DNA of 64,000 nucleotides. Origin: Atractiella rhizophila. Taxonomy: Eukaryota. Shown here piece by piece: positions 43,546 through 64,000 of the stretch. Position 1 is the first letter of the stretch. Each line of letters begins with the position of its first letter. Where the stretch lies: assembly GCA_021432655.1 (NCBI GenBank), contig MU271304.1, positions 1-64,000 of the forward strand. The letters run 5' to 3'. The position numbers and the translations under genes were made by a program. A model generated the notes under the pieces. It did no database searches and had not been told where the DNA came from. It was given only the letters and a program-made list of their open reading frames with translations.

Positions 43546-45873
43546 TTATGATGGCAGAGGTGTTCTACTGGGCTGCTTGTCCATGAATTCCTGACTGGCC
43601 TCAGACAAAGACCAGTTTCGTGCATATGCGCTTGCCTTTAAAACTATCGCACATCCCGCGTTATTTCGGATGCTGAAAGAAAGAATAGCCGAGCGTACAC
43701 TTCTTATTTGAATACTTTTTGTATAGAAATTTCTCTTCAAAGAGGTCGTCCCTCAAGACTTCGACAAGGAACCTAGCCGGACCCAAGAGCTGAGCTTCGG
43801 TAAATCCAGAGTAGAAGACAAAGGCATGGTTCTGATACAGCGGTGTCAATCTTCGATTCATATCTCAGAAGTTGAGGACTAACCCAAGTCTGACCCAACA
43901 TGATCCTTGCCATATACATGCCGATAGCAGCGATCAAACTGGGCTTAGCTCGAAGGAAGCGATGGTCGAGAAGAGTGACTTCCATCAAAAATTTGGAAAG
44001 AGTTCGTGTTTGGACATCGTAATCATCAGCTTTGCTAATCCTCCTCACCCAGGTGTAAGGCGAACAGTACGTCGAGATCTCGAAATCCAAGGTCTCTAAT
44101 ATGACACGTTCGCCCTTCAGGATCTCTTCTTTCGTATAACCGTCGTGAGTAATGTAAGCAAATTCGTCCACACTGTAATGAAATGGGATGAACAAAGGAC
44201 ATGATCTGAACATGACAGAGAACTTACCTCGGAGCCATCACCTCTTCATATTTAGCAGCGATGAACATGGAAGTCACTCCGACCAGTTGAACCTTATGGA
44301 CATTGACGATTCGCTTGGAGAGGAACCTGTCGAAGATATTGATGGCGATCCAAAGAGTTTCCGGTAACATGTGGTATCTCATGTGAATCTGAAGGAGCCA
44401 ATCGACGAGAGAAGTTCGCATGGCCCATTGGATATCAGGCTGGCGTTCCATATAATTGGGATCCGGGAGCGCCTTTCCCTATTTTCGAGTTCCCATGAGT
44501 TCTGTGTCTCCAAAGCAGAGGAAAGACACACCTCTAGTTGGGACATATACTCGAAAATCTCTTCGTGGTACTCAGCGACCATCTGAGTATCCCTCACGTC
44601 AACCTGTTCCGAAAACATCTCCCTGATATTCTTAACTTCCCTCTGAGCCTCAGCCTCAACCTCTTGGTCAAGAAGAAGCCAGTTATCCGGATCGATTTCC
44701 GTGACTGGTGTCGGAGGAGCAGTTGACTTCTTTTCCACCTCCGCCACTTCGACAGGATCCTCGTAGACAGAGACTTGGGAGATTGGGCGATGACGACTCG
44801 CTCGCGCTGGTTTAGCAGGCGAGGCTTCCCTGGCAGCCTCCTTCCTAATTTCCACCTCAATGTCCTCATCTACTTCCTGGATCGGCAGTCCACCTGGCAT
44901 AACCGTCTCCTTCAAAGGCTCATCGACCATGACCTGGTCCCTGAGCGAACGCCTCGAAGACTTCTCCGATCTATACGATCCCCTCCTCGACTCAGCTCCG
45001 CGCTCCATTGGGACGGGGAGAGTGACATTGTCCACTTGAACTTCTTCCTTATCCGTTACTCCACACATTTCGAAGCCCTGCCCCACTTCCTCAATCAAGT
45101 CGTGCTCCTGAACTGGTGAGAAGATCTCCATATCCGCCGTACTCCAGGGTCGTTCCCTTCCATGAGCTTCTGTCCTTTCCCGCTTAGCAGGGGGTGGAAG
45201 GTCCTCGTGAACTTTGAAAGCAGGTTCGTGAAGAGATTGGTTGGAAGACTTGACCGAGAGCCCGGGTCTCGCGTGTTTTGTCCCTCCAAAGGATATGGTG
45301 CTAGACTTGCTTTTGGCATTCTTGAGGCGTGAAGCAAGGGTCTTCGATGTTTGTGCATCCGCAGAAGTGACGGTGGATGATGATCGTGCTCTGATAGTTG
45401 GAATGCGTGGGACAGCAGCTGAGTCGATGGACATTGTTTTCTTGTGCATCGGCTTAACAAGTGAGCTCGAGGACTTTCCCCGTTACCTCAGTTATTACGA
45501 CGCGTCGATGCATAGAGGGACGAGTAAAGCATACCTTGCCGACTCCATTTGTGAGGACCGCTCGCTTTGGTAATCCTGCAATGGGCTTGTTCTCAATCCC
45601 TCCGAAATCCTTTACGGAAGCGACCGGTCCCTTCAAAGGGTTCCCTAGACCGGAGGAAAGTGGTCCCTTCTGAGGAAGAGGAGCGATCGCGCGGACTGTA
45701 GAAGCAGTCTTGGGCAGGAGTGGCTGTCGAGGAGCGAGATCCTCAGTAAGGTTAGCTTTCGATGCAACCCGAGAAGCACGACCTGCTCGAGGCTGTATTA
45801 TCAAAGGCAATCAGTCGTACGAAAAGAAACACTAGAACAGGAAAGGACGGACTCTGTTGAGGGGTTGTGCCAT
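43546..45873 (-). CDS. B-type (G2/M) cyclin; multi-exon
   Basis: MVAEYHEEIFEYM, MRTSLVDWLLQIH, LPETLWIAINIFDRFLS, QLVGVTSMFIAAKYEE, RRISKADDYDVQTRTLSKFLMEV. Confidence 0.95.
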
Positions 45874-46392
45874 TTCGTTCTTTCAAAAACGGGCCTCAAG
45901 AATAAGATGATGTGATGTAATCCGACGTCTAACACCACCCATCAGACAAATTAAATACAACACATCTCCTCATTCCAGCGGTAAAAGTGAAGAGAATACG
46001 AACGGTTAGACTATTTACTGTGGTACTTTCTGACCACCCAACCGACAAGGTCGAAGGTTCCAATTCCGTTTTCGTACTTGATAAAAGGTGATAAAAAGAG
46101 ATATTGACAAATCCTAGAGGCTCTGAGGAGAGAATAGGCGGGAAAGAGGGTAAGGTGACGACTTTGTGAAGGGTAAGCAACAAAGTGACGCCTTTGATCG
46201 TTACGAATTAATATGAGAAAAGCGTCCAGAACTCAAGAGCCGTTGCAGGAACTGTGATTCTGAACGGAGAAAGTATACCTTCGCGTCAAACGTGGCCTAG
46301 GCGAAGGGCGAAACTGGCGGACGAAAGGTGGAAGGTGACGGTGAAAGGGAGGACAAGCGAAGTTGAGCGAACGTCTACTCAAAACATAAATG

Positions 46393-46404
46393 ACCCTAAC
46401 CCTA
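46393..46404 (+). repeat. Interstitial telomere-type repeat (two CCCTAA units, permuted)
   Basis: ACCCTAACCCTA in the intergenic region upstream of the cyclin B gene. Confidence 0.7.
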
Positions 46405-46920
46405 CGTCACATTGCGCGTTAACTCACACGTGATCGGCACTTGTTTCTGGATGTGCCATGAACATGAAGCGTGTGAGAGAGGAGCAGAGAGCAGAGGATA
46501 CTTAATTTCCCACTTCACCGCCATTTATTCTGAGCATGTATATTGAGAGAATCCTCTGTCAGTCCTGCTGGAGTTGCAATGAAGCATGCCAATCTTCATC
46601 AAGTCCTGGGTTATGGTTCGAAGGTAGGACATGTCCTGATTTACGGCTCGGAGTTGCGACACCAAAATGAATCAATGGATGAATAATGAGACATTGCAGC
46701 GATGGGTGTGATGCGACGACAAATGCAACAGAATGATTAGAACATTAAGGGAATGAGAAGTCACACCAGAACCATCATGTATTTAAGACAGAATTGACTG
46801 ATACCATACGACTCTTTGTTGTTTTTTTCCTTCCTTGACGACATAAAGGGACCATAGATAGAAAGGCGAAATGAAATGAACACAAATGACACACTGAAAA
46901 GAAAGAGAGGTTTGAACAGA

Positions 46921-49245
46921 TCAGGCCTTCGCTGAAGCACGACGCAGGAAAGAATTCCACTTCCCCGACTTGGGTGCATTCTCGTCGTCTGATGCCGATG
47001 CCGAAGTCGTGCTCAAGCTCCCAAAGATCCCTTTGCGCCGGACGGGTTTAGGAGATTTGACAAGCACGGAATCACTTCGTGTCTCTTCGGGTGGAAGGGG
47101 TGGAGACAGGACGCGCGCAGATACAGGGGGAGTTGGCAACGACTGAGTAGGTCGTTCTGGTAACGGAAGAGAATCGATCCGACGCGGGATACCTTCGCCG
47201 GGAGTTGGGGGTTCTGAATGAAGCGAGGTAACCTGTGACATGGATGTGGGAGAAGCGGTAGTCTGATCTAGGTATTCGCTCATGTTCATGTCGACATCTG
47301 AAGACGACGCCTCAGAATGAAATGACGTCCGTGAGGAGAGTCCAAACGAGGAGTAGCTAACTCCTAACCCGGATATGCTTTGAGCTATCGAATTCGCTTC
47401 GGCCTCTCTGTTACTCAAGGTTGGATCCAGCGTTGCTACTGATCCAGCAAATGATGGATTGGATTGGAAGGAAGCCGATGATGCGTAGACCGAGGCTTCA
47501 GGTGGAAGTCGGGTCCTTCGACCAGTCCCACTAGAGCTTGAACTTGAGAACGTCGGCGCCGTAGAACCCCTAATTGTCCTCAAGGTTTCCTTCGAGGAAT
47601 TACTACCTAATGACGGACCACCTGCACTCCTGGGTCGCCTAGATGCGTCGTAAGGGTGATTCCTTGGCTTCGGCGAGAGGTGATTGGGAGAATGGTGCCG
47701 GCGAGGCGGACTAAGAAGGTTAGAAGTACTGTTGAAAGAATCGCTATTATTCATAATTCGGAAGGTTTCTGAGCTTAATGAACTTCGATGAGACGCAGTT
47801 CGACGAATCGAAATATCGCCAGTGGATGGCCGTGAGACGCCAGCAGTTGAAGGACGAACAGCAGTCGACGAACGCACTAGTTTCGGGGCGGTTTCAGGTT
47901 CTGGAATCGTCGGCATTGGGAGTTCTGGGGGTGGGGTGAGAGCACGGCGGTCGAAAAGGTCTCGCTCAGCTTGACAAGCTGGAAGTTGGCGCAGTGCATT
48001 GTGCCCAGCCCGTTTTCGCTCGCTCGCTCCAATGGGAGCGACTACCAGTTCCTTTGAAAGTTCTATTGACTCGTTTCCTCCAGCCTTGGTTTTGATTAGG
48101 ATCTGATAAACCGACATAACAGTGAGCAATGTGAAGAAGTAGGCGAGAAATGACGGACCTTGACATTAATTGTGAAATAAATTTCCGAAAATCTGGTGCA
48201 CATGGTTTCACCGATGGAATAAACATATGCCGACTTTGGTTTGGGGAGAGTCACGGCGAGAGATGTTTGTGCGGTCCCGCGCTCATCGAATGAAGGATTT
48301 TCGGTATAAACAGGTGAGAAAGTTGTGGTATTAGGTCGTTTGGCAATTCTTGCTAACTGGGTTTGGGTTTGGGGGAGATAGGTGGAGTCGTATGAACGGT
48401 AGACGACATAGCGACCGGATACCAGTTCGGAATTGATGGCGCGGTGGCGGTCTGAAGTTGTTTGAAACTGCAGTTCTTCGAAGGTGGGTCGCACGAACTT
48501 GAGGTCCCTATTATCCTCCCCCGCTTCATCGAAACAGAGAACGTGATGACGCTGGATGGAAACCGCAACTTTTTGACAGCAACTGAGTTGTCGTGCTTGC
48601 GCATGACAATGTTGACATTGTGTGGCTCGTCATAGCTCACAATGTAGCGTTGATGGTCTATCGAGCACTCGATGCCGCGGTGGAAAGTGTATGTATGGGG
48701 TACAAATTGAATCGGGGGAGGAATTCGAGGAAGGTCGTATCGTGTGAGAAGGAGAGGTTTAGCAACAACTTTTGTCGTGCCTTGCATCGCGATGCGCTTA
48801 TGCGTGACCACTGTCCCGTCACATTGTGAACCCACTGACTTAATGAAAGGAGCACTAAAGACCCACCGGCTTCGACCTGCCACCAAGCTCTGTACGACCT
48901 AAACGAGCTCGTGCTCACCCCACCGACAGAGATTGGCAAAACGATTCTGAAGAAGCTCTCCCAGTCTCCCAGCAGTCCCCATTCCACACCATCACCCTTC
49001 CTCCATAACTCTTGAACAGCCTCAAAGAGAATACCGACATTGTCGTTCTTCACTGGCTTTCCGTCCACCTGAGACTCGTAGCAAACAACTCTGACGACGA
49101 CACTGGATGCTTTCACTGGCTTGAGGTCCTCCTGCAGGCCCAAAGAAACAACGCCTTGTATGATAACTGGCGTGAGGCCCAGGTAACCAGCATGAGGGAA
49201 GAATCTCGCTGTGTTTCCCCTGCTCTTGAGGGCGAGTACGACCAT
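46921..49245 (-). CDS. Conserved fungal protein with arrestin-like N-terminal beta-sandwich and long Ser/Pro-rich tail; multi-exon
   Basis: FFPHAGYLGLTPVIIQGVV...VVVRVVCYES...ELW...FRIVLP...YRAWWQVEA|VVTH. Long low-complexity last exon. Confidence 0.65.
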
Positions 49246-49781
49246 GTTGAATGGCTTCTGGGTGGAAGTTGGGAATCCTCCGTTGCTGTTTTCGACACGC
49301 GACTTGTGAAAATGGAATACTTGGGATGAGGACCCGCAGAGGGATTGGGGAGACTGGTAGGTGAAGGGAGCGAACAAAGGAGAGAGGTGGTTAAATGAGA
49401 ACGGAGGTTGGAGTGGGCCATTCGTAAGGGCAAATCATTGGGAAGGACGCTAGTCCAAGTTAGCGCTACTCAAACTTTGAGATCGGAAACTTGAACGTGA
49501 CTCCCAGACGCGTTAAGAAAGCTTCGGCCGTGACCGGACAGTCAATTCTTTTGTTCTCTTCCGTTCACTCAGGTTCACTTCGCGTTTTGCCCAGTCCCGA
49601 CAAACAATACATGCATTATTAGTGTCCGCCAAAGGTATCTCAAAACAAAAAACAAATCCAAGATAAAGATAAAAGGCATTTCATTCCACAGAGCGTGAAA
49701 GCATCACTCCCGGCGCTCAACTTTTTACACACGGTCTTCTGCATTCCGATGGACTCTAATTGCCCAACTTATTGCCCTAGA

Positions 49782-51949
49782 CTAGTTGTGCTTCCAGTAA
49801 CTACGCCAACGTCAGATTTTTCTGTGCCGATGGGTCTGTAGCCTTACCAGATGTCACCATCTTGGACTGCGCCAATTCGAACTCATCAGCTTTGGCTTTC
49901 GAGCTAGCAGCATACGACTTACCTTCGTACGTTTTTCCTATTCAAAGTCGGACCCATCAACGTTTGCACATCAGATCATGACAGAGAGCACCCACCCTTT
50001 TGAGCAAGCTTACCGGCCTGGACCGGATTTGATGAAAAAAAAAAAGGAACTTGCGGACCGGAAAAGTTCGAAAAACCTACAGCTTTCACAGCTGCCTCAG
50101 AACCTAGCTCACGGAGATCATTATAGGCCATGATATCAGCTGAGATAAACTTGTTTTCGAAGTCAGTGCTGTCAACCGCGCAGAGGACAGTTCTCAGAGA
50201 TGTCAACCTTCAACGCAAGATGGGAGGACGCACTGAATCACTCCGGCAGCCTGGGGAGCTTTTGTGTTCTCCCGAATTGTCCATGCTCTCACTTCATCAG
50301 GCCCGCAGGTAAAATACCGGATGAGCTTACGAAATGGATAGGAGTCAGCCATCCACATCCATCAACGTGAGAAAAAGGAACCAATGGACGCACATGTAAA
50401 GCTTGATACCCAGCTGTCGTGATCTTCCCTAAAGCAGCTGGAGCACCTAGCTCCTCGCACTTCTTTTTTTGGTCGTCCTTGCTCAAGTCAACAAGCGTTT
50501 CTTCAAAGACAACAGAATAGGGAATCAATGGGTCTCCAGGGTTGTTACTGTCTATCCATTGTTTGATCTTGGGCAGCCTGGAAAACCTCCAATTAACATT
50601 TCTGCAGACGAAAATCGCCATGAGGCAGGACGAGGAACAACACACACCATTTGTTCTTCTTCCGGATGTAGTCCTTCTCGCTAAGATTTACAAGGTATAC
50701 CACGGGTTTAGCTGTTAGCAGCTGCAATCCGTTCACCACATCAATCTACAAAGAAAAGAGAGGTCAGCTTGGCCGTTTGACAAGGAGGCACATCAATCGG
50801 AGCAAGATCAGATTGGATATTATCTCATCGTTCATGTGCATGAACATTCGACGAGCTGGGTTATTAGATTTCGAGCACTGCGTGCCCTTTTTCATCACAG
50901 AATCAAAGTGAAAAGTTTCAGTGGACTGCAATAGTGCTTACCTCCTTTGCGCTCCAGTCAGCCTTTCGAACGTCTTTGTTACTCTTCAAAACGTCGAGGA
51001 CTTTCTCCACAGACGTCTGAACTTCATCAGTCCACGTTGGAGGTGGGTGGCGAGCGAAAACATACGATCTCTTCCTTCTTCGCTTTATCGGCCAGAGACG
51101 CCGTTCCAGTTCCCCGGAAGGTTTTCTTCAGCTGGACGCCAGGAATATCGTCAATAAGAGCAACATTTGTGCACAAATGCCAAGAAAAGACATACACCGT
51201 CCAGATGTTTCTCCACCCATTCTGTGTCCTTCAGCCTCAACTCGTTCGAAATGATCTCCATGTCCCTGACCGGGTCGACATCACCTTCGACGTGGGTAAC
51301 ATCCGCGTCATCGAATGCTCTAACAAGTTGATAGATCCCATCGACAGCTCGGATGTGGGATAAAAAGGAGTTCCCCATTCCTTCTCCTGTGTGTGATCCT
51401 CGTGTAAGGCCAGCAATATCGATGATTGTGAGATGGGCGGGGATGCGGGAAGCAGGCTTATAAAGGTCGCAAAGCCATTCAAACCGCTCGTCAGGGAGAG
51501 GGACTCTAGCTTCTTCCTGTAGAGAAGCACATTATGCACGAATTTGAAGCTGAAGGGAAGAAACAAACTGGATCGACGGTTGCATAAGGGTAATTCTAGA
51601 TGTGGATGAGCATTTGCTCTCAGTCTAGCAGAAATAGAGCTTACAGCAGTCTACAAGAGGAAGGACAGCATGAGCATTGTTTGAGCAATGAGAGGAATCA
51701 CACCTTTCCGAGATCTGGAAACATTTGAATCAGTTCAGGCCCGGTGAATCATCTGATGCTCCTACCAGTTTTAGAGATGACGTTAAACGTTGAGGACTTT
51801 CCGATGTTGGCGAGCCCAACAATTCCCATTTTCAGATTGTTAGAGGGTCGACCTGATTTTCTCCATCAAGACAGATTTTGATCAACGGAAGAAAGCGGCT
51901 CACCAAGCAATGCCTTTGGCTCGGCAGCAGGCGCTTTTTTGGGAGGCAT
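49782..51949 (-). CDS. OLA1: Obg-like ATPase 1 (YchF family); many small exons
   Basis: MPPKK...[84 protein letters not shown]. Confidence 0.95.
50805..50903 (-). ncRNA. Intronic box C/D snoRNA, snR69-like (predicted 25S rRNA Cm2948-equivalent guide)
   Basis: Lies in an unusually long (196 nt) OLA1 intron. Box C GTGATGA (50898-50892), box D CTGA (50811-50808), D'-like TCGA (50851-50848) preceded by AACCCAGCTC, which is complementary to conserved LSU rRNA GAGCUGGGUU. Hairpin between D' and a C'-like ATGAGA. Confidence 0.8.
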
Positions 51950-52695
51950 TTTCTTTTTGGCGCAATAGAGAGTACAATGAAAACTACGAATACAAAGTCT
52001 TTGAGCTGGATATCGAACGAGGAAGGCCAGATTGACGCTCTCGTTGATTGGTAGAAAAAAATTGATCAGCCCTGTCGGTTTGATCCGAAGCAGTGGTGGA
52101 ATAGAACCACTCTAATTATCGATAATGTGCTCTCTAAATCTGCAGGTGCGAAGTCTGAAAATCTGCAAATGGTTGATGTGCGCCACAAACTTAATTCCCA
52201 ACTTTCCCGTTTCGGATGTTTGCCTTTTTGCTTTCACTCACCTTTCCACGCATATTCTGCGCTTCTGCATATTGCACATTATATCTCTCGTCGAAGAGAG
52301 TGAAGCCATGCTGAAGGGCTCATCTGTGAGGGCTCTTGACGCAACTCTTCCGGGCAGCATAAATTCGATTGCACTGACGTGAAGGAGAAAACAAAAATTC
52401 ACAACATGCAAATCAAGCACTCAAACCTGAATAAATGGGGGGGTGCGGTTCAAATGTGATGGCAGGAACGCAGGAACACACAGAATGTTCACAGGCCGAT
52501 CGGAGAGAATGGATTGATTCTACAACTTCGATAACACACCAGAAAGAGAGACAGAGAACGCGATCACACGACGGAAGCCAAATATATAAGAACCATAGCC
52601 ACAAAGCATTATCAGGTAGGCGTACTGGAATATATCAAGGGCAAAGTGAAAGCCGAAGATTGGAGCACGCCCCGTTGACAACGGCCCCAACACCG

Positions 52696-54992
52696 TCACC
52701 AACGTGGAGCAGGCCAGGCTTCAACTTGTCGATTTCTGGCAACGAAATCCGCGACGTGCTGCATTCTGGCCCTCATCATGGGAGACTCGTTGTCGGAAGG
52801 TGGGGGAGCGGTAGGCTGTTCGCGATGATGACGATGTCTTCTCCGCCGCTGAGTATCTGCAACCGGAGCCACTGCAACGATATGTGTGGTGGAGTCTGTT
52901 CCAACATGATCTGACTGCACTGGGAGTTGTACCCAATGAGCGTGATGTGCGTGATGGTGCACGTGCCCATGTTGAGGCGCAGTCATGTTATTCTCGTTTT
53001 CCACATCCATCCCTTCCTCCTCGACATCCTCATGCTCTTCACCATCCAACGAAATCTCCCCTTTATCTGCTCCTTCCGGAAGCTCGATCGGTCCATTCTC
53101 GTTCTCCAATTTTGATGCCATGGAACACCACATTCGGTGTCCCTTGCTCCAAGCTTTACTCTGACAAGTCTTCGAGCAGTACTTCGCTTTCCGACACCTC
53201 CGACATTTAGCAAACTCGCGAGGAGACGACTCCCACTTCCCACAAGCCATGTTGGCGCACTGCCGAATGCCACCTCGAGCGTCATCCTTCCGACAAGCAT
53301 TACGCATAATCACTCCGGCCCAGCGTTGAATTTCGGGGGGGAATTGAATAACATTGCGGTCCTCCTTGACTGGCCTGAATGTGAACTTCTCCACGATGGC
53401 GAAGATATTCGGGCACACCCAGTTCGCCGGTCTAGCATCGGTGAAGCGGGTTCGGGAACACACGGCGTTGGCAGGAGCCATAGGATCTGGTGGAGTGAGG
53501 GGGCTTGGTCGATGGAAGGTGGCACGGACGTGAGGATACTTTGAAAGGTAAGCTAACAGCTGTAAGCAAAGCAGAATCTCCTCGTCGCGGATGCTGTAAT
53601 CGTCAGAGGTTGAAGGTGACAGCTGTAGAAGCGAGATGGAAGGACTATCTTCGTCCTCCTCCCCTTGCTCTGTCTCCGGAACATTGACTCGATGGACGCT
53701 GGACTCGACGTCGAATACAGGAATAGCGGTAGGTTCAGCATCTTCCATCATGGGGGCACTGAGTGGAAGATTTCGGCCCCGTCGTGGTGACGGATGTTGA
53801 ATGGGCGACTGAGATGGTCGAGGATGAGAAGAAACAGAGCCCTCTGCTGAGCCCATCACAACATCTCCATCCCTATCTACACTGCGCTCTGCCTTCGACC
53901 TGCCGATAGCAGCCGATGGATCTGGAGCTCGTCTGATAATACGATGGAAAAGCTCGTTGCGAACTGAAAGGAGAGTGGACGCATCTGTAGTTGCCGTCCG
54001 ATCAGAGGAGCGGTCCTCCTCGATGGCATCAGCCGGCAACTCTACATCCTCATCCATTGGCTGAGGTTCCTCAGGAGCGGAAGTATCGCCGTCTGAGAAT
54101 GAAATGGTACCTTCTGGAGTCGGAATGCGGTTAACCTCCTCTCTCGAACTATTATCACTCATCGACCCAACAGGGACACGACTGGGTCCAGCAACATCCG
54201 AACTTTGAGAAGGATGCGCTGATAGCTGTGTCGCTCGAGATCTACTCCGATGATGCTTTGAAGAATGACTCTTTGACCCGCTCCCCGCAACGCCGAGCCT
54301 CTCCTTCACCCATCGCTCCTTCGTCTCCTGCAAATACTTCTCCATAATGCAAACGACAAGAGGAAGCACTCCAGCTTCCACTAGTTTCTGGCGAACTTGC
54401 TCCGTACCCCTTATCCCAACATTACAAATACACTGAAATGCAAGTGTCCACGACCAGACCGACATCCGCTTTGCACTGTCAGCTTGCGGAAGCCAAATGT
54501 CCGGTGACAGGGACGGTGGTCGATCGATTGAGAGATCTAGATAACCCGCTCCGCTCGGTGGCCTGGCGCCGAGAGAAGCTGAAGGGCACGAATAGAATGG
54601 TTTGAACGGACCCGGGGGTGGTTTGAACTCCTTGAAGCATCCGTCGACGAGATCCATCAGACGTTCGAGGCCACCATCATGCGTTAGAATCTCGCGAATA
54701 CGGGGAGAGGTAGAAGTGAGGGATTGAAGACGTGTGAGGGAATTAATCAGAGGAACAAGCGAGGTATTATCGAGTGCTGGAAGACAAACGTCAACAAAAC
54801 CGGTCTTGATCACGTGATATCTCTTCAGAGGCAAGATTTGATGGCCAGTAATGTGATATTTGGTCCCACTCTAGAGTCCCATGCACCGATAGATAGTAGA
54901 TGATTCTGCTCACCTCGCCTGTCGTAAAGCTGGCCTGTAATCACCACGGCTGCCCTGCCCGCTGCCGAAGTCGTGAAATTGTCGCCTCTCAT
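52696..54992 (-). CDS. MUB1: MYND zinc-finger protein Mub1/SamB
   Basis: VVITGQLYDRR|ALDNTSLVPLINSL...TSTSPRIREILTHDGGLERL, LQLLAYLSKYPHVR, WAGVIMRNACRKD, CANMACGKWE...FAKCRRCRKAKYCSKTCQSKAW. Confidence 0.93.
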
Positions 54993-56385
54993 TCTGCTCT
55001 CGCGATATCAGCGTCGAGACTAATGAAGCAGTACTCGAATAGGTTTTTCTGAGGGGAAGGAAGGGAGGCCGGGAGGAGATGACGACGAGAGGGGGTGAAG
55101 GGAGCGAAGCGTATGTCGATCTAGATGAGGAGTTGAAGGATGTGGCAAGCATAAAGAGACCTGTGCAGCAATAAATATGCGTGAGAAGGTATTCTCCTGT
55201 GTTCAGGAGCGTTGAAATATCGTTGATGGTGGATGTCTGTCATATTGGGGGAGAGCGTTTGCCACTGATGACTCACCCTGTGTCTGTCTGAATCCGATGA
55301 CGAAGGTGTTCCAGAGTGGATTTTAGGGAGACGATAAGTCGAAAGAATGGGCTAGGCAAGTGCAGAGCACTCGACTCGGTTAGTGTTGGGCGAAGAGGGC
55401 AAGACGGTTTATGTTGCAGTGTTCTGTCCGCAGCCGCAGTTACTGCGCAGCCCAGCGAAATCGGAAGTGGACTCATTCATCTCCACCACAGATCGACCTC
55501 GAAATTGGGCTAACGATTGACCTGACAAATTCTGGTCACCAGCTCATGAGAGAGCTCCATCTCAATCTCTCTCTAATCTTGACAAAGGGCGCTGCCCAAG
55601 GACCAGTTTTACGCAATTTTACGCCTTTCTTCAGTTCCATCCGAATCCAGCAAGGATCCACAATTCGACACATTTTACCAAGACTTCACCTGTCTTGAAA
55701 GCTTGAAATTGAATTTCTTGGAAGCCTGAACATTCTTGAACGCTGTGCCTATGAATGTGTGCGAGTTTCCTTCCTAAGTGCCCCTGCACTTGCAATTGGC
55801 ATGGCATGATGAAGCGTGCCAGAAGAGTGCGCAATAGTGGCGCAGTAATGCTTCAGGAATTGAGTTGAATGTCGCAGGCTCCACCACGTCGTTGCTTTCT
55901 CGAGAAGTTGCTCAGTTCAGTTGCGTGGGAGATGGAGAATCGGGAAGCATCTGCAGCGACCAATATTGTGTAAGATTCTCTTCGAGAAGCTGCCAGGGAA
56001 GGCTTCGGACAAGCTAGAAGAGAATATCACGCGATTCTTCTCCCGTATGGAAAAGCAATGGAAGGAATGAGTAGTTGAGTGTTGTTATTCTGGGCTTTCT
56101 GGATGCTGCCCAATGAGCTCTCCGATCCTGTTCCGTGCTCTCGGTAGTTCCCCTCCTTCAAAAGGGCATTCAATTCGTTAGTTAACACTGCACCAGATTG
56201 GCAGTAGACTGGCTATGCTTGACTACAACCTTGCCTAACCCTGATGATCTGATCTCCATTACGTCCGCTGAGAACTCTTTCGGAGCATCGAAGGAAGGTG
56301 TTGCGAGGTGTGGCTGTTATCCCCAACTTTTCAAGTCGAGAAGAACAGGCATCAGATTGTTGGCAACGTTCGCTCCACATGAGAA

Positions 56386-57137
56386 TTAGGAAAGGGCATC
56401 TCTTTGCAACAGCCTCTCCTTTACCTCTCCTCGTATGCTGCTCCAATACAGTTCCTCTCGTCTTCCTACGATTAAATCAGCCTTCACCATCGCTTCTTCA
56501 TCAAAGTCTTCATTCAGCGGTAGCCAATCATCCCCTTCCAGTTGATGAACGACGCGATGCTTTCCCAGCCAGTCCACCAGTCGCCGTGCTTGCTCAGTCG
56601 TCTCGAGGCGGATATGACACTTTCCGCGTCGACCGTGAGTAAACATTGGACTCTCGTATCTTAAGAAAAACATGGGATGCTGACGCGATCGAGACCTTTG
56701 GTCAAATCGACATATTCCACCTTCACACCATCGACAGACCTCTCAATCAACTTTTTCATCTTCTCTCGGTTTGTGGACGTAGAGAGGTGGGATAGATGAA
56801 CGATCACTCCCTCGGGGAAACCACGTCGTCTTCTTCGTTGCAGCCCAAGTCGAGACTGATGCTGCACATCGGGTGATCCCCCATAATACCCTCGTTCGTC
56901 AGGTTCTTCCTGTATGTGCTCCTCCGCCTCAGCAGCATTGCTGAAATCTACCACATCCGACTCTGTCTTCTGGACATCCACAGCTGGTGTGGTTTCGTCT
57001 TGAGACTTTGGCCGTCGCGTTGCACTCTGTGCGTCAATTTTCAAGTTGCCTGCCGCAGGCTGAGTGGAGATGGTTTCTTTGGCTGCTGAGTTCGAGATGG
57101 AAGCCTTCTTTATCGCAATGGCTCGTGGAAGGAACAT
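56386..57137 (-). CDS. Short LARP7/Pof8-like protein with C-terminal xRRM (228 aa; intron 56620-56684)
   Basis: N-terminal MFLPRA. C-terminal FPEGVIVHLSHLSTSTNREKMKKLI...VEYVDLTKGLDR|CHIRLETTEQARRLV...ADLIVGRREELYW fits the xRRM pattern (YVD strand, IR strand, G..E..YW helix). Confidence 0.75.
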
Positions 57138-57554
57138 GGCAGTCTGAGCCGCTGGTTGTTCGTTGACTTCCAATACTGTGATACTCACAGATGTTGGCTT
57201 ACTGGCTGGCGACAGGTCTTCATACTCTAGCAACTTTGCCTTTCAAGTTGGCCCCCCAATAGGGATCATTAGAAAGTCTTCCTATTGATGATTGCTTTTG
57301 TAGTAATACAGAGAAAGAAGACGCAGAAAAGGAGTAAAGAAAGATTTATACGGATCCCAATATTGAATCTTCAAAGAACTGAGGTAAGAACCAAAATCCA
57401 AAGAAAAGAGTGACCTCCAAAGTATGAACACAAAACGCTTGCACTAACTCTCCAAGGTAAGATATTGATGGAAAGTAAGGAGGGGAAGGGGTAATCGAAA
57501 TTTCGTCTTCTTACATCCCTACGTGACAATAACAGCAATGAAAGTCCTTCAAAT

Positions 57555-59335
57555 TTAATGCCCACTCCCGCTTCCACTGGCTACGGCGCTCCCATCACGG
57601 TTATGTGAGCCGCTCCCGCTCGCAACAGCATTTCCATCTTCCGGAGGGACCGGAGTCGGCTGTCTCGTATCCCTATACACTGGTGGTAACTCCTCCACCT
57701 CCCCCTCCTCTCCAACCCTTCCTGCATCCTGTGCATGAACGACTCTCCTGCTATTGTTAGGGAAGTTGAGCTCCGCAGTGAGAGCAGCCTTCGTTGCGCT
57801 TCCTCTCCGCGGATCTGTTGGTCCTCCATCCGCTCCTCCGTCAGGATTGGTGACGAAGAACCGGCCAGCGGACGTTCGTCGTCCTGCGGCGGGAAGTGGG
57901 TATTGGTTTGGACCAACAGGAGATGGGATAGGAGGATACCCGTGAGTGGATTGGTAGCCTTCTGATAGGCCTCCAGCCGAGGAAGGACGGCCGTTTGAGT
58001 GGTGTTCGGTAGAGGCATATGCTGATGGTGCGTAGGAGTTGGAGTACGAGGGAACATGAGAGTGACCGTATCCATATGGTTCCCCATTTTGTGGATCCAG
58101 GTGCTCACCAGAGTGCCTAAGCTTACATGTTAGAAGGTAAAAGAGACTTTAACAGGCCGACTAACCCTGCTGGACTGTGGTTGTAATAGCTGCCCTTCTT
58201 CTCACTTAAGGACGCAAGAGACTGCCGGTTCTTTCTTCGGCGCAAGAACCACCAGACACCAGCAGCAAGAACGACCACAGCGGCCCCAGCTGCTACACCA
58301 CCTGCTATTGCTCCTACGCTAGATGAGCCTTTGCTGTCGCTCCCACTGTCCCACTCGATTAGTCGTTATGTGGAAGTGGAGGAAAACGCACCTCCCACCG
58401 CCAATGCCACTACCGTTACCAGAACCGCTACCGCCCGTTGGACTGCTGCCGCTGGAGGAGGTAGTCTGAGAACCACCAGAGAGACATGCGGCATTGCCGG
58501 TCCCTGAAGTGAAGAGGTCCGAAGTGGGGAGGTAAACATTGTTGTTGTTGGAAATGGCGACTGTGAGTGAAAACGCGGCCGTCAGGAACGCATTCAGGAC
58601 ATGAACAGATAATCAGAGCAATGGAAAAGGAACACCGACTGATAGCCTGTCCGCCCGTCTGGATTGTATTCTTCCAAGCATAGCTGGTTCCAGTTACACC
58701 TGTGATGTTTACCGGGGCAGCTCCAGTTCGAACAATGGTAATAGTATACGGTCCGCTGACCTGGGTATTCGTCCAAGAGATGGAAAGATCTTCGCATTGC
58801 GGCGGGTTTGGTTCAGTGGGCACTGTGACAGTCTCCGTGGAAGTAGGACTGGGATTTGTTTGCAGGCAACTCTGATTCGCGGAGGAGGTGACAGAGTAGA
58901 TTGCAGTAGATATGCCTCCAGAGATCCCGTTGGAGTCCGCCATCGCAAGGAGCACCTGAGTCCCTGCACGGCGCAAACAGTCACCTTCGCAGTCCCGTTT
59001 CCAACAGTGTGATGAAACGCACCAGCAGCATAATTAGCCGTCCAATGGAACGTTGTTCCAGCTTGCCCAACTGTAACCACTTCAGGGACACCTCCAATGG
59101 GGTAAATAAGCAGGTAATAAGGCGCCCGAGGAGCAGGATTTGGATTATCGACGGGGTAGATGTCGATGGAAACGTCTCCGCAGGAAGGGAAGCTCCTGCT
59201 CGTATCTGCTGCGCCAGCAGCCCAATTGAAGGATATGGGTACATTCGTAATTTGTTCAGCAAAAACTGTCCCCATAAAGGAAAGGAGAGCCGCGAGACTC
59301 ATCGCTGTTGGCATCAATGCCGAGCTCGTTAACAT
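57555..59335 (-). CDS. Type I membrane protein: signal peptide, Ser/Thr-rich ectodomain, single TM, cytosolic tail with PPxY; multi-exon
   Basis: Hydrophobic N-terminus, TM VGAIAGGVAAGAVVVLAAGVWWFL followed by RRRK, and tail ...HAQDAG...EELPPVY. Confidence 0.7.
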
Positions 59336-59526
59336 TGCCCTGACAGTCTGTTAACGTCACCTCCAGCCAGAAAGTTGGGCAGCCGCACGATGATCACTCT
59401 GTGGAGTTCCTCGACTCGCTCTGGCCAGTTTTCGTCGCCCAAGGGCTTCACAGCTTGGTGATAGTCAAAAAAGTTGGTCGTTCGAGTTCGTGAAGTGACG
59501 CAGCAGGAACCATAGCCCGTGGCCGC

Positions 59527-62404
59527 CGACTTGGCGGGTTTCGGATTTCACCGCTTATGCTGACTTCTTGTCCTGTTCGAGTACATTTGCATGTACATCT
59601 GCGCTTTGTCTGGGTACAGTAATAGCATCAACTTCGTCGTGGCTTAGAACTGATGCGAAGAGGTGCGTGGTTCGGTTGTGCAGAAGGTGTCCTTTATGAT
59701 ATTATCTGCTTGACCTTGGCAGTTTGACCCATCAAACGCGTCATAATCCACGCGATAAACTCTACAAAGCTGTAACAGTGTCTTGTTCGATTCATGAATC
59801 TTTGAGTTCAATACATCGTTCACGTCATGAGGAACGCCTCTTGCTTACTTCATGACACTTTCGGCGCACTTGTTAGGAGCCGTTGAATATTTGCAAGTTG
59901 GTCATGAAATCGCCAATTTCTTGACCAGGCGGTTCGGGCTACGCGCTAGAATCTGAAGCAAGGACGCTTCTGCTGAGCAGCTGTCAGATTCTTTGTGAAG
60001 GATTTCTCTGAGTGAAACTAATGGTGTACTTTATGTTGCACTCGAGTATAAGTTTGTGAGGTTGACCATTTACCTGCTATCTCGTCCAATCATATATGAC
60101 ATCCGCCGATACTATTACGCAGACTAACGTTTTTGTGAACTCTCAGAATGGCAGAAACGATGTCGCACCGCGTGCTCTCGTCCTACTTCCCATCCCCAGG
60201 ACGAGTTTTCACGCTGCTTGAATGGCTCAGTCCCAATGACCCGACCAGAATCCTCCACATTGACGATCCAGAAGGCTTCCGCCGTTTTCTGAATGATTCT
60301 TTGGTTGGGGTTGACTTCGATGCGACGACCTGGAAAGGCCCTATTCTGGATACCACGGCACATGGAGAGTCATCTATTGAGGTGGGAAGATCTATAAAGT
60401 TGTGACCCCCATTAATCCATGTTCAAGTTGATTCGCAAAGCTCAACTGAGGTTGTTGAGCGTTGGCGCAACCAAGTCCAGAACAGCAGCTCCGTCCGGTT
60501 CTAAATCTTTCCCGCATCCAAAAAACATCTTGATACTCGGTTGTTCTAATGTAAGTCTTCCTCTTATGAAGGGATGTGACAATTTTCAACGAGTAACAGG
60601 AATCAGGAGGGGTGGCAATCAAATTTCCGAATACCACTGTGGCATTCTTGGAACAGAATAAAGACATTGCAAAATTAATCGAGAGGTCAATTCTCGACCT
60701 TGGGATGACAATGAGCTGACTATACAAATAGAGCTGGACCTCATGCTTTCACTCAGTTGCTGACAAGAACATCCTTCTTCCTCTCCTTACCGAACAATTG
60801 CTACGTTCAAGTCGCCGGTCCTGCTCTTTCCGAGCTTCCCCTTCCCGTAGACAAAAAATTGTCACGCATAAGCGCGGCCGATACGCCAAAGGAGGTTTCA
60901 ACCCGTGGACCACAACCGCTAGAGCACACGCAGTCATTGCCGGGACGGTTAATAACGCTGGACCAACCTACATTAAAACGGACAAGATCACTGGGCGTCG
61001 AGACTGAGAGCGAAAATATAAAGAAACGAAGGGTTGAAGACGGCTCTTCTCCTTTTCTGTGAGGACTTTTACGTTAGTTTTGATTTTACTGAGGTTCCGC
61101 AGGATAACCGCAAACTCGATTCATTTTGCCAGAAATCGTATTTTTCATTCTCGTCCTGTGAGACTCTTGACGGGAGGAATAAACTCTGGAGTATCTCCGA
61201 ACAGTGAGGCACGACCTTTGACTTTTTGCACGAACAATTAACGAATTTGGCAGATATCCTCAATCGCGTCAAGTTGCTATTTGGTCCTTCCGATGAGAGG
61301 GCTCGTCACTTATCCAAATACATGTTCCCGCGAGCGTATGGCCTACGAAGCTGTTTTGATACCAAAGATGAGCTCAAGGGTTTGTCGGGGATTAAATTCG
61401 ACGAGCGAGAAAAGGAGATTAAGGTAAGTAGGAGCATGTCGTTTAACAGCTGATTGTGAGGCGACATGACAGGCTTTGGGAGCGTTGAAAACTCCAAAAA
61501 AGATCAAGTCTGTGATCCGTCTGATCGAGGAGGTAATACGAAATCACTCACGAGTCGATTATCGCCGCCTGCTGGACCAACATTGTCCCCGACGGTTGGG
61601 TCGAGGAGCAAGAAATTGTACAGAGAATGAAAAAACAAAGGTATGCTTATATCATCCCAAGACAGGTATTTGATACCTCAGAAGGATTCTTTATTGGAAG
61701 CTGAGCCTCACACGCAAATATCAAAGAATGAGGTTAGCTTGGAGGTGTCGCATCCTTCACTGGTTGTGCCTCATGGTGCAAGAGAGGCGAAGGAAGCAGT
61801 TCGACTACAGCCGAAGTTTTCTGAATATACAATAGCTGCTTACGAGGTATGTGCCAAGTCGTTCCCAACCGTATCTCTGACACTCTGACCTGAAGGTTGA
61901 ATCTTACGTGAAAGCCATAGCCCTGGCCATCTTTCCCGCTGATCTCTGGGGCTCGGACACTAATTGGGATATTATGTGGTTCAGTTCATATTTTACTCTC
62001 ACCATGGAGTTCACACTCACAACCATTAGACATCAGCCTTTTTATTCGCGCCCGACGATATGAAACGTTCACGTTGCACACCTTTATGCAAAAACTTCGG
62101 CCTAACGACTGCCCCTGGATGGGGTCGAACACGAATGCCAAGATCACACCCCAAGAAGCAAAAATGCGGATGGAGCTTTTTCAGGATCTTGTCTATTGGT
62201 TTATTGATAATTTCTTAGTGGACGTTTTGAAAGTGAGCCATTTCATGTGTCGACGCGGCGACGGTGGGCTCAAATGCGCCATAGACAACATTCTACATTA
62301 CGGAGTCCTCTGCCTATCGAAACCGTGCCTTATACTTTAGACAAGACGATTGGCACGATATTTGCCAGCCTTTGCTGGGGAAAATGTCGCAGACTCTCTT
62401 CCAA
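59527..62404 (+). repeat. Tandem segmental duplication, unit 1 (TERT promoter region plus 5' part of TERT)
   Basis: Sequence from 59527 (cgacttggcgggtttcggatttcacc...) recurs at 62405 and stays collinear to the window end with scattered substitutions and two small indels. Confidence 0.95.
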
Positions 62405-62500
62405 CGACTTGGCGGGTTTCGGATTTCACCGCTTATGCTGACTTCTTGTCCTGTTCGAGTACATTTGCATGTACATCTGCGCTTTGTCTGGGTACAGTAG
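60148..62500 (+). CDS. TERT: Telomerase reverse transcriptase, 3'-truncated copy (TEN + linker + TRBD, no RT domain; ~625 aa, 11 exons)
   Basis: TEN/GQ motif KFPNT...LLTRTSFFLSLPNNCYVQVAGPAL, KYMFPRAYGL, CP motif DYRRLLDQHCP, QFP region IFPADLWGS...FIRARRYE, T motif YWFIDNFLVDVLK|TTFYITESSAYRNRALYFRQDDW. The frame crosses the duplication junction and stops at TAG 62498-62500. Confidence 0.9.
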
Positions 62501-64000
62501 TAGCAATCAACTTCGTCGTGGCTTAGAACTGATGCGAAGAGGTGCGTGGTTCGGTTGTGCAGAAGGTGTCCTTTATGATATTATCTGCTTGACCTTGGCA
62601 GTTTGACCCATCAAACGCGTCATAATCCACGCGATAAACTCTACAAAGCTGTAACAGTGTCTTGTTCGATTCATGAATCTTTGAGTTCAATACATCGTTC
62701 ACGTCATGAGGAACGCCTCTTGCTTACTTCATGACACTTTCGGCGCACTTGTTAGGAGCCGTTGAATATTTGCAAGTTGGTCATGAAATCGCCAATTTCT
62801 TGACCAGGCGGTTCGGGCTACGCGCTAGAATCTGAAGCAAGGACGCTTCTGCTGAGCAGCTGTCAGATTCTTTGTGAAGGATTTCTCTGAGTGAAACTAA
62901 TGGTGTACTTTATGTTGCACTCGAGTGTAAGTTTGTGAGGTTGACCATTTACCTGCTATCTCGTCCAATCATATGTGACATCCGTCGATACTAGCAGACT
63001 AACGTTTTTGTGAACTCTCAGGATGGCAGAAACGATGTCGCACCGCGTGCTCTCGTCCTACTTCCCATCCCCAGGACGAGTTTTCACGCTGCTTGAATGG
63101 CTCAGTCCCAATGACCCGACCAGAATCCTCCACATTGACGATCCAGAAGGCTTCCGCCGTTTTCTGAATGATTCTTTGGTTGGGGTTGACTTCGATGCGA
63201 CGACCTGGAAAGGCCCTATTCTGGATACCACGGCACATGGAGAGTCATCTATTGAGGTGGGAAGAGCTATAAAGTTGTGACCCCCATTAATCCATGTTCA
63301 AGTTGATTCGCAAATCTCAACTGAGGTTGTTGAGCGTTGGCGCAACCAAGTCCAGAACAGCAGCTCCGTCCGGTTCTAAATCTTCCCCGCATCCAAAAAA
63401 CATCTTGATACTCGGTTGTTCTAACGTAAGTCTTCCTCTTATGAAGGGATGTGACAATTTTTAACGAGTACCAGGAATCAGGAGGGGTGGCAATCAAATT
63501 TCCGAATACCACTGTGGCATTCTTGGAACAGAATAAAGACATTGCAAAATTAATCGAGAGGTCAATTCTCGACCTTGGGATGACAATGAGCTGACTATAC
63601 AAATAGAGCTGGACCTCATGCTTTCACTCAGTTGCTGACAAGAACATCCTTCTTCCTCTCCTTACCGAACAATTGCTACGTTCAAGTCGCCGGTCCTGCT
63701 CTTTCCGAGCTTCCCCTTCCCGTAGACAAAAAATTGTCACGCATAAGCGCGGCCGATACGCCAAAGGACGGTTCAGCCCGTGGACCACAACCGCTAGAGC
63801 ACACGCAGTCATTGCCGGGACGGTTAATAACGCTGGACCAACCTATATTAAAACGGACAAGGTCATTGGGCGTCGAGACTGAGAGCGAAAACATAAAGAA
63901 ACGAAGGGTTGAAGACGACTCTTCTCCTTCTCTGTGAGGACTTTTACATTAGTTTTGATTTTACTGAGGTTCCGCAGGATAACCGCAAACTCGATTCATT
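62405..64000 (+). repeat. Tandem segmental duplication, unit 2 (runs off the window)
   Basis: Near-identical to 59527-61125. Confidence 0.95.
63023..64000 (+). CDS. TERT: Telomerase reverse transcriptase, second copy (5' part; continues beyond the window)
   Basis: Same TEN-domain exons as copy 1, with intact splice sites and open frame. Confidence 0.88.

Follow-up and report, generated by a model that had tools for sequence, protein, structure and literature searches.

Does the short RNA-binding protein gene that lies close to the telomerase reverse transcriptase gene TERT in Atractiella rhizophila, a root-associated member of the Pucciniomycotina, encode a factor of telomerase assembly, and does its position beside TERT mean anything? 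We examined this question in a 64,000-nt window (positions 1 to 64,000, forward strand, of contig MU271304.1 in assembly GCA_021432655.1), for which an original prediction made from the DNA letters had placed a gene with an xRRM domain about 3 kb from TERT and proposed that it may be the telomerase assembly factor of this lineage. The product of this gene, NCBI protein KAH8924086.1 (228 aa, hypothetical protein BT69DRAFT_1349690, Atractiella rhizophila), is very probably an xRRM-only, Pof8-like protein. A role of this xRRM-only protein in telomerase RNA assembly is the best explanation overall of the evidence below, and we hold it tentatively, at slightly short of even confidence.

The xRRM gene begins with an ATG at 57137-57135 on the reverse strand, as the original prediction had it, the coding part of its second exon covers 56619..56389, and its stop codon is at 56388..56386 (all features are collected in Table 1). 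A script check found the translation of the spliced coding sequence to be KAH8924086.1 letter for letter, and a word search with exon 2 retrieved this single protein at 100 % identity. The intron, in which CTCAC forms a branch-like site, is spliced, since a contig of the root metatranscriptome RNA run X18, whose contigs are 95-99 % alike the window, reaches the exon boundary at 56619 and then continues for 22 letters, 21 of which are the end of exon 1. The run X3 has no recorded kind and behaves as RNA, as its contigs show GT..AG joints throughout; contigs of X3 cover the xRRM gene, and one of them is unbroken over 56075..56514, so that transcription of the gene would end near 56075. The same unbroken contig rules out an alternative 3' intron at 56424..56373, and an alternative donor at 56695 was ruled out because it breaks the frame and conflicts with KAH8924086.1. 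The xRRM gene (57137..56386, reverse strand) is a real, spliced and expressed A. rhizophila gene. Contig depths of the public runs were left out of any expression ranking. As a separate observation on the samples themselves, contigs of X7 and X18 (root metatranscriptome, other runs) are 95-99 % identical to several genes in 44001-64000, the spliced xRRM mRNA included, and close relatives or strains of A. rhizophila were therefore transcriptionally active in those samples.

As judged from its sequence, the domain in KAH8924086.1 is a genuine xRRM. The Pfam family PF19977 (xRRM), whose cut-off is 23.7 bits, matched residues 107-217 with 75.4 bits, the match taking in positions 2-119 of the 120 in the profile; PF08777 (RRM_3) followed below that score with 35.9 bits. 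The domain assignment made from the bare DNA letters is upheld. By definition, an xRRM has no RNP1 or RNP2, carries a Y/W-x-D motif ("RNP3") on beta-2 and a conserved arginine on beta-3, and lays an extra helix, alpha-3, across the sheet (10.1101/739532). KAH8924086.1 has RNP3 as Y142-V143-D144 on beta-2 and the arginine as R155 on beta-3; the spacing of 13 residues from Y142 to R155 is the same as that given for Y330 and R343 of Pof8 (10.1101/739532). In HMMER alignments to the xRRM of human LARP7, Y142-V143-D144 and R155 fall on its YVD and CHAR, and the C-terminal ELYWSSI falls on its QRYWQKI. The RNP positions are without F or Y, beta-1 reading VIVHLS and beta-3 RCHIRLE, with the strand limits taken from a low-confidence structural model.

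That model, predicted by AlphaFold2 from a two-sequence alignment, orders the elements as beta-1 (111-116), alpha-1 (121-134), beta-2 (139-141), beta-3 (151-156), alpha-2 (159-171) and beta-4 (197-202). After beta-4 it places helices at 205-213 and 217-223, at a predicted local distance difference test score (pLDDT) below 50; this helix region is covered by the Pfam match and by the alignment to human LARP7. Residues 1-106 are without predicted structure except for one 4-residue helix. When the model was compared with PDB structures by Foldseek, seven of the top ten ranks were of the xRRM type, with human LARP7 at ranks 1-2, Pof8 at 4 and 6, Tetrahymena p65 at 7-8 and human La RRM2 at 10. In the ESM Atlas, searched with residues 100-228 and using a model of its own, the nearest cluster is one of basidiomycete proteins named "XRRM domain-containing protein", with a template modelling (TM) score of 0.80 over 123 residues; its representative is 515 aa long, and PF19977 is found on 100 % of its 80 members. 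A chordate RRM_1+RRM_3 cluster reached a TM of 0.65 and a "lupus La protein" cluster 0.60.

The original prediction had described a Pof8/LARP7-like xRRM gene, and the label of LARP7 family is too strong for its product. The xRRMs of LARP7, Pof8 and p65 stand nearer to the domain than genuine La does in the Foldseek comparison, which was made on a poor model, and the xRRM cluster stands nearer than the La cluster in the Atlas; this is a ranking, not a tree, and it speaks against a grouping with genuine La or an unrelated RRM. Pfam detected no La motif (PF05383) and no RRM1 (PF00076) in KAH8924086.1 at E <= 1, and by family architecture the protein is therefore not LARP7. Nor can it carry a La module, given that the domain is preceded by just 106 residues, which are unstructured, and that the end of the next gene is no more than about 420 bp from the xRRM ATG. 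KAH8924086.1 is an xRRM-only protein, with an arginine-rich, unstructured N-terminal region of 106 residues followed by one C-terminal xRRM.

Similar to Pof8/Lar7 of Schizosaccharomyces pombe, KAH8924086.1 combines a C-terminal xRRM with the Y-x-D of beta-2, the beta-3 arginine 13 residues further on and a predicted extra C-terminal helix corresponding to alpha-3. In contrast, secondary-structure prediction assigns to Pof8 a La-like module at the N-terminus and an RRM1, neither of which is present in KAH8924086.1, and the telomerase role of Pof8 is experimental, whereas we infer that of KAH8924086.1. The best solved structure for the protein, by sequence (E 0.014-0.026) and by Foldseek, is the human LARP7 xRRM (5knw, 6d12, 7slp), with which it has in common the motif VxYVDLxxG...CHxR and the alpha-3 motif YW..I; human LARP7 differs in having a La motif and RRM1 and in binding 7SK, and its identity over the aligned domain is about 20 % (Foldseek). 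Tetrahymena p65 (4erd, 4eyt) and Euplotes p43, whose proposed role is to fold telomerase RNA so that TERT can load, are alike in the xRRM fold, but in p65 there is also a La module, its long alpha-3 wedges into stem IV, and its identity to KAH8924086.1 is 12-14 % (Foldseek). Genuine La RRM2 (1owx) is also an atypical RRM with a C-terminal helix, and its family PF08777 matches KAH8924086.1 too; it nevertheless ranks lower (tenth in Foldseek; Atlas TM 0.60 vs 0.80), and genuine La always comes with the La motif and RRM1 that KAH8924086.1 lacks.

Short proteins of this kind have been described before. A search with the RRM2 of Pof8 as bait reported Pof8-related RRM2 proteins in most Basidiomycota, some of them too short for a La module (Deragon 2020, PMC7928011), and KAH8924086.1 fits among these short proteins, a class already described. 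The likeness is that a C-terminal RRM2 of the LARP7/Pof8 type is the sole recognisable part of a basidiomycete protein; the difference is that the available part of the paper mentions no TERT linkage for them (PMC7928011). Closer relatives were few. Two word-index searches with the xRRM gene, one using exon 2 and one the full protein, returned nothing but KAH8924086.1, and phmmer with exon 1 alone against 1.84 billion representatives returned, besides KAH8924086.1, just one protein at 42 % identity (E 1.3e-4). This protein, P0002, is a 106-aa metagenome protein from a 1,802-nt JGI/IMG contig. Its N-terminus begins about 58 residues before the domain, and unrelated residues follow directly after KGLD, which is the Atractiella intron site; the late start and the read-through after KGLD suggest that both proteins have a short N-terminus and the same intron site. 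Scans of metagenome contigs brought no relative, as 0 of 229 pattern matches were confirmed for an alignment of KAH8924086.1 with P0002, and 0 of 84 for a piece of the TERT RNA-binding domain (RBD). In the literature, we found no functional test of a Pof8-like xRRM protein in any basidiomycete and no mention of TERT linkage of an xRRM gene; the basidiomycete telomerase literature found concerns just TERT and the telomerase RNA of Ustilago and relatives, with no accessory protein tested in the available parts of these papers (PMC9564094, PMC10035886).

The physical linkage to TERT was as originally predicted. From ATG to ATG, the xRRM gene and the first TERT copy in the window (copy A) are 3,011 bp apart with one gene between them, and a TERT start at about 60148 on the forward strand was borne out by an ATG at 60148, by the Telomerase_RBD family PF12009 with 59.1 bits (cut-off 25) at 61921-62340, and by the T motif, which reads FYITES...YFRQDDW in a three-frame translation; TEN_TERT (PF11474) scored 19.3 bits at 60715-61062, below its cut-off of 25. 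However, copy A is incomplete in the assembly. The stretch 59527-61125 is repeated at 62405-64000 with 98.4 % identity (21 mismatches and 2 gaps, of 1 nt and 4 nt, in 1,600 columns). At the junction, 62404/62405, the sequence passes from CTCTTCCAA directly into CGACTTGGCGGG, and an identical CGACTTGGCGGG opens the first unit at 59526. The frame of copy A then enters the repeated upstream DNA for 32 codons and meets a stop at 62500. The second copy, copy B, starts at 63023 and leaves the window at 64000 before its RBD. This 2.88-kb tandem duplication, which truncates TERT copy A, is a new observation in the assembly.

We would like to note that an independent public data set reads differently at this point. 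A contig (1,379 nt) of the DNA-type run X1 matches 61074..62403 with one mismatch and then runs on for 49 letters that resemble nothing in 44001-64000. Past 62403 this continuation stays in frame (..TLFQRLEL) and then shows a GTGAGT donor, as expected of an intact TERT exon, and an intact continuation of TERT therefore exists in the X1 data set. The depth of X1 is about 140-250 over the repeated span vs about 200 in the flanks, which is a hint of a single copy and not decisive; elsewhere, the difference between X1 and the window is about 0.5 %. Given this depth and the read-on past 62403, the duplication may be a structural variant confined to the strain or haplotype that was assembled, it may be a heterozygous variant, or it may be an assembly fault in which two haplotypes were stacked. 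In a bolder variant of the very unlikely reading of TERT and the xRRM gene as a selected pair, which is taken up below, the duplication would be real and would yield a TERT fragment of TEN domain plus partial RBD, which would titrate telomerase RNA beside an RNA chaperone. A word search with TERT exon 1 for annotated TERT proteins found none of at least 141 aa and is little informative. Any TERT annotation here must check this first copy, as either a real truncated paralogue or an assembly fault.

The basic linkage of the xRRM gene and TERT stands in either arrangement, as in the arrangement of X1 the start of an intact TERT would be at a distance of 3.0 kb from the xRRM gene, and in the assembly a presumably complete copy starts 5.9 kb away. 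By a rough estimate for a genome of about 10^4 genes, the chance that one named gene is no more than two genes away from TERT is about 4 in 10^4, and the adjacency therefore carries some weight. It is probably not a regulatory unit. The two genes are divergent, an unrelated gene lies between them, and the neighbouring copy of TERT is, in this assembly, a 5' duplicate that breaks off. That the linkage is conserved or functional appears improbable to us.

How the protein might act can be proposed by analogy with the complexes solved for p65 and LARP7 and with the genetics of Pof8. Y142, D144, R155 and helix alpha-3 would together make a pocket in which a bulged guanine and its neighbour are held beside the stem of a structured RNA. 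With the guanine clamped between beta-2/beta-3 and helix alpha-3, a non-coding RNA would be kept in an assembly-competent fold, and some unspecific affinity for RNA may come from the arginine-rich region at the N-terminus. The client would be the telomerase RNA of A. rhizophila, with KAH8924086.1 acting before or during TERT loading and promoting it. It is the RNA that proteins with an xRRM contact, and direct binding to TERT is no part of this proposal. Because KAH8924086.1 has no La module, the 3' U-tail would not be held by the protein itself, and this task would fall in trans to Lsm2-8, to genuine La or to another partner. Pof8, p65 and LARP7 are described as acting on telomerase RNA (10.1101/739532; PMC7928011), and by this analogy telomerase RNA could well be the main client of KAH8924086.1, although we would not go as far as an even chance.

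A pocket of this kind may also serve another RNA, and we regard it as quite possible, if as the lesser possibility, that the xRRM-only protein is a chaperone of some other structured small RNA (U6, or another transcript of the RNA polymerase III or small nuclear RNA type) and stands next to TERT by chance. The xRRMs of the La/LARP7 group serve several RNAs, with LARP7 on 7SK, La on RNA polymerase III transcripts and Pof8-Bmc1 linked to U6; the sequence of KAH8924086.1 is without a telomerase-specific feature; and the divergent orientation, the unrelated membrane-protein gene in between and the lack of a telomere gene elsewhere among the scanned open reading frames (ORFs) of the window are all in keeping with chance. 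Against this, 7SK is described as identified in metazoa (10.1101/739532) and we found no report of it in fungi in the literature, and a chance adjacency to TERT would be rare by the estimate given above. It is unlikely, in our judgement, that a longer gene of the Pof8/LARP7 type gave rise to this one as a shortened paralogue or remnant with a reduced or different role, while a protein of about 500 aa, encoded elsewhere in the genome, is the telomerase factor at work. Such a reading would draw on the 515-aa basidiomycete xRRM family that forms the nearest structural cluster and on the mere 106 unstructured residues before the domain, but the gene is spliced and is present in RNA contigs of two runs (X3, X18), its RNA-contact residues are all intact, and short forms are reported in other Basidiomycota (PMC7928011). 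P0002, at 42 % identity, is short too and has the intron site in common, so the short form appears to be conserved and not a one-off decay product. The start codons are close and separated by a single gene, the adjacency is rarely expected by chance, and such a linkage would be new, as none was found in the literature; one could therefore picture TERT and the La-module-less, Pof8-like xRRM gene as a conserved pair kept by selection, a telomerase mini-cluster, in the Atractiellomycetes or more widely. We consider this very unlikely, as it has been seen in one genome, there is no shared promoter, and the adjacent TERT copy is incomplete in the assembly.

The reading that we prefer, an xRRM-only protein of telomerase RNA assembly, has a number of observations to contend with. 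The AlphaFold2 model of KAH8924086.1 is poor (mean pLDDT 47.7), and Foldseek found no match to it in the PDB at E <= 1e-3. No homologue of tested function was reached by sequence, with either the word-index searches or phmmer on exon 1. PDB sequence searches with KAH8924086.1, and with a profile of it and P0002, gave human LARP7 chains at E 0.014-0.51 and one unrelated regulator; these LARP7 matches are weak, and the Pof8 chains (6u7v, 6tzn) were missing at E <= 10. A reciprocal best match to Pof8, by which the original prediction could have been strengthened, accordingly failed in the forward direction, the one direction run. The lack of a La motif and RRM1 belongs here as well, and the S. 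pombe Pof8-Bmc1 complex is described as acting on U6 too (PMC10484740), which makes a non-telomerase client possible. At the locus itself, the linkage was observed in one assembly; TERT copy A there lacks the entire reverse transcriptase (RT) domain, being cut at 62404 just past the T motif, inside the RBD; no Rfam telomerase RNA was found in the window at E <= 10; and no other telomere-related Pfam family was found in the scanned ORFs of the window (104 of the 121 stop-to-stop ORFs of at least 110 aa, plus 8 more, with nine overlapping or copy-B ORFs left out).

As it stands, the finding is one gene of a described class in a single genome. Pof8-like xRRM proteins are nevertheless the obvious candidates for a basidiomycete telomerase accessory factor, and in the short xRRM-only form the half of LARP7 that folds RNA is seen to occur without the half that binds the 3' end, which bears on how fungi split or lost the functions of the La module and the xRRM. 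If the linkage recurred in relatives, genomes would offer an inexpensive lead to the assembly factor and, via RNA immunoprecipitation, to the telomerase RNA of the Pucciniomycotina. If the selected gene pair were true, the locus would point to the missing basidiomycete telomerase assembly factor and, by way of this factor, to the telomerase RNA.

Table 1. Features of the xRRM-TERT locus of A. rhizophila, in positions of the 64,000-nt window (UTR, untranslated region; CDS, coding sequence).
Feature	Positions	Strand	Content	Support
xRRM gene, exon 1	56685..57137	-	151 codons; unstructured N-terminal region with RRRRR patch, then beta-1, alpha-1, beta-2 (Y142-V143-D144)	
xRRM gene, intron	56620..56684	-	65 nt, GTCAGC...CTCAC...GAAAG; separates beta-2 from beta-3	X18 RNA contig
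xRRM gene, exon 2	56386..56619	-	77 codons plus stop; beta-3, alpha-2, beta-4, predicted helix alpha-3	Pfam xRRM profile positions 55-119
xRRM domain	56422..56819 (intron included)	-	residues 107-217	PF19977, Foldseek, ESM Atlas
xRRM gene, 3' UTR	56075..56385	-		X3 RNA-type contig 56075..56514 without break
TERT copy A	60148..62404	+	TEN, linker, RBD through T motif, then cut; no RT domain after it within the window	
Tandem-duplication unit A	59527..62404	+	2,878 bp; TERT upstream region and TERT 5' part	
Tandem-duplication unit B	62405..64000, continuing off the window	+	start of TERT copy B at 63023	
Intervening gene, secreted or type-I membrane protein	CDS about 57555..59335	-	no Pfam family	ORF translations, RNA contigs
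MYND-finger gene	ORF 52696..54870	-		PF01753

The gene between the xRRM gene and TERT had been taken for a single membrane-protein gene from the DNA letters, and its ORF translations agree with this: the N-terminus resembles a signal peptide, and RRRKNR comes directly after the one hydrophobic span. Its introns at 58116-58164, 58346-58391 and 58561-58639 are spliced in contigs of X3, X7 and X18, and Pfam assigned no family to its three ORF pieces. On the other side of the xRRM gene, RNA contigs give the MYND-finger gene a long 5' leader with introns at 54777-54913 and 55159-55274, reaching about 56036. The MYND-gene transcript thus takes up 54776-56036, and the gap to the xRRM transcript, which ends near 56075, is just about 40 nt, so that these tandem genes are packed very tightly and all the space here is assigned. 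Further Pfam families found in the window are Tam41, DUF92, WD40, Yip1, BUB1/Mad3 kinase, GTP cyclohydrolase, DHHC and cyclin.

Two short strings in the window were considered as templates of a telomerase RNA and rejected. Template-like strings are common, with 782 loci reported in Ustilago maydis (PMC9564094). The 9-mer CCTAACCCT at 56234-56242 on the forward strand is no template, as it lies inside the X3 contig that is read as the 3' UTR of the xRRM gene, in antisense orientation to it; by our own arithmetic, chance alone would give about 3 such 9-mers in a window. The 12-mer ACCCTAACCCTA at 46393-46404 on the forward strand, which comprises two telomere-repeat units, is expected at about 0.05 sites per window by the same kind of arithmetic. 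It was rejected as a template, there being no X3 cover at 46504; it lies in a gap of about 400 bp between the transcript of the cyclin gene (RNA contig end at 46331) and the next gene, about 60 nt beyond that contig, and is more likely a promoter element of the telomere-repeat type than a telomerase RNA template. A further non-coding RNA was recognised elsewhere in the window, where a C/D-box small nucleolar RNA is located at 50804-50902 on the reverse strand per Rfam (Afu_304 with 43.5 bits, gathering threshold 35; snR69 with 38 bits), within an intron of 196 nt that RNA contigs show to be removed (joint 50745->50942).

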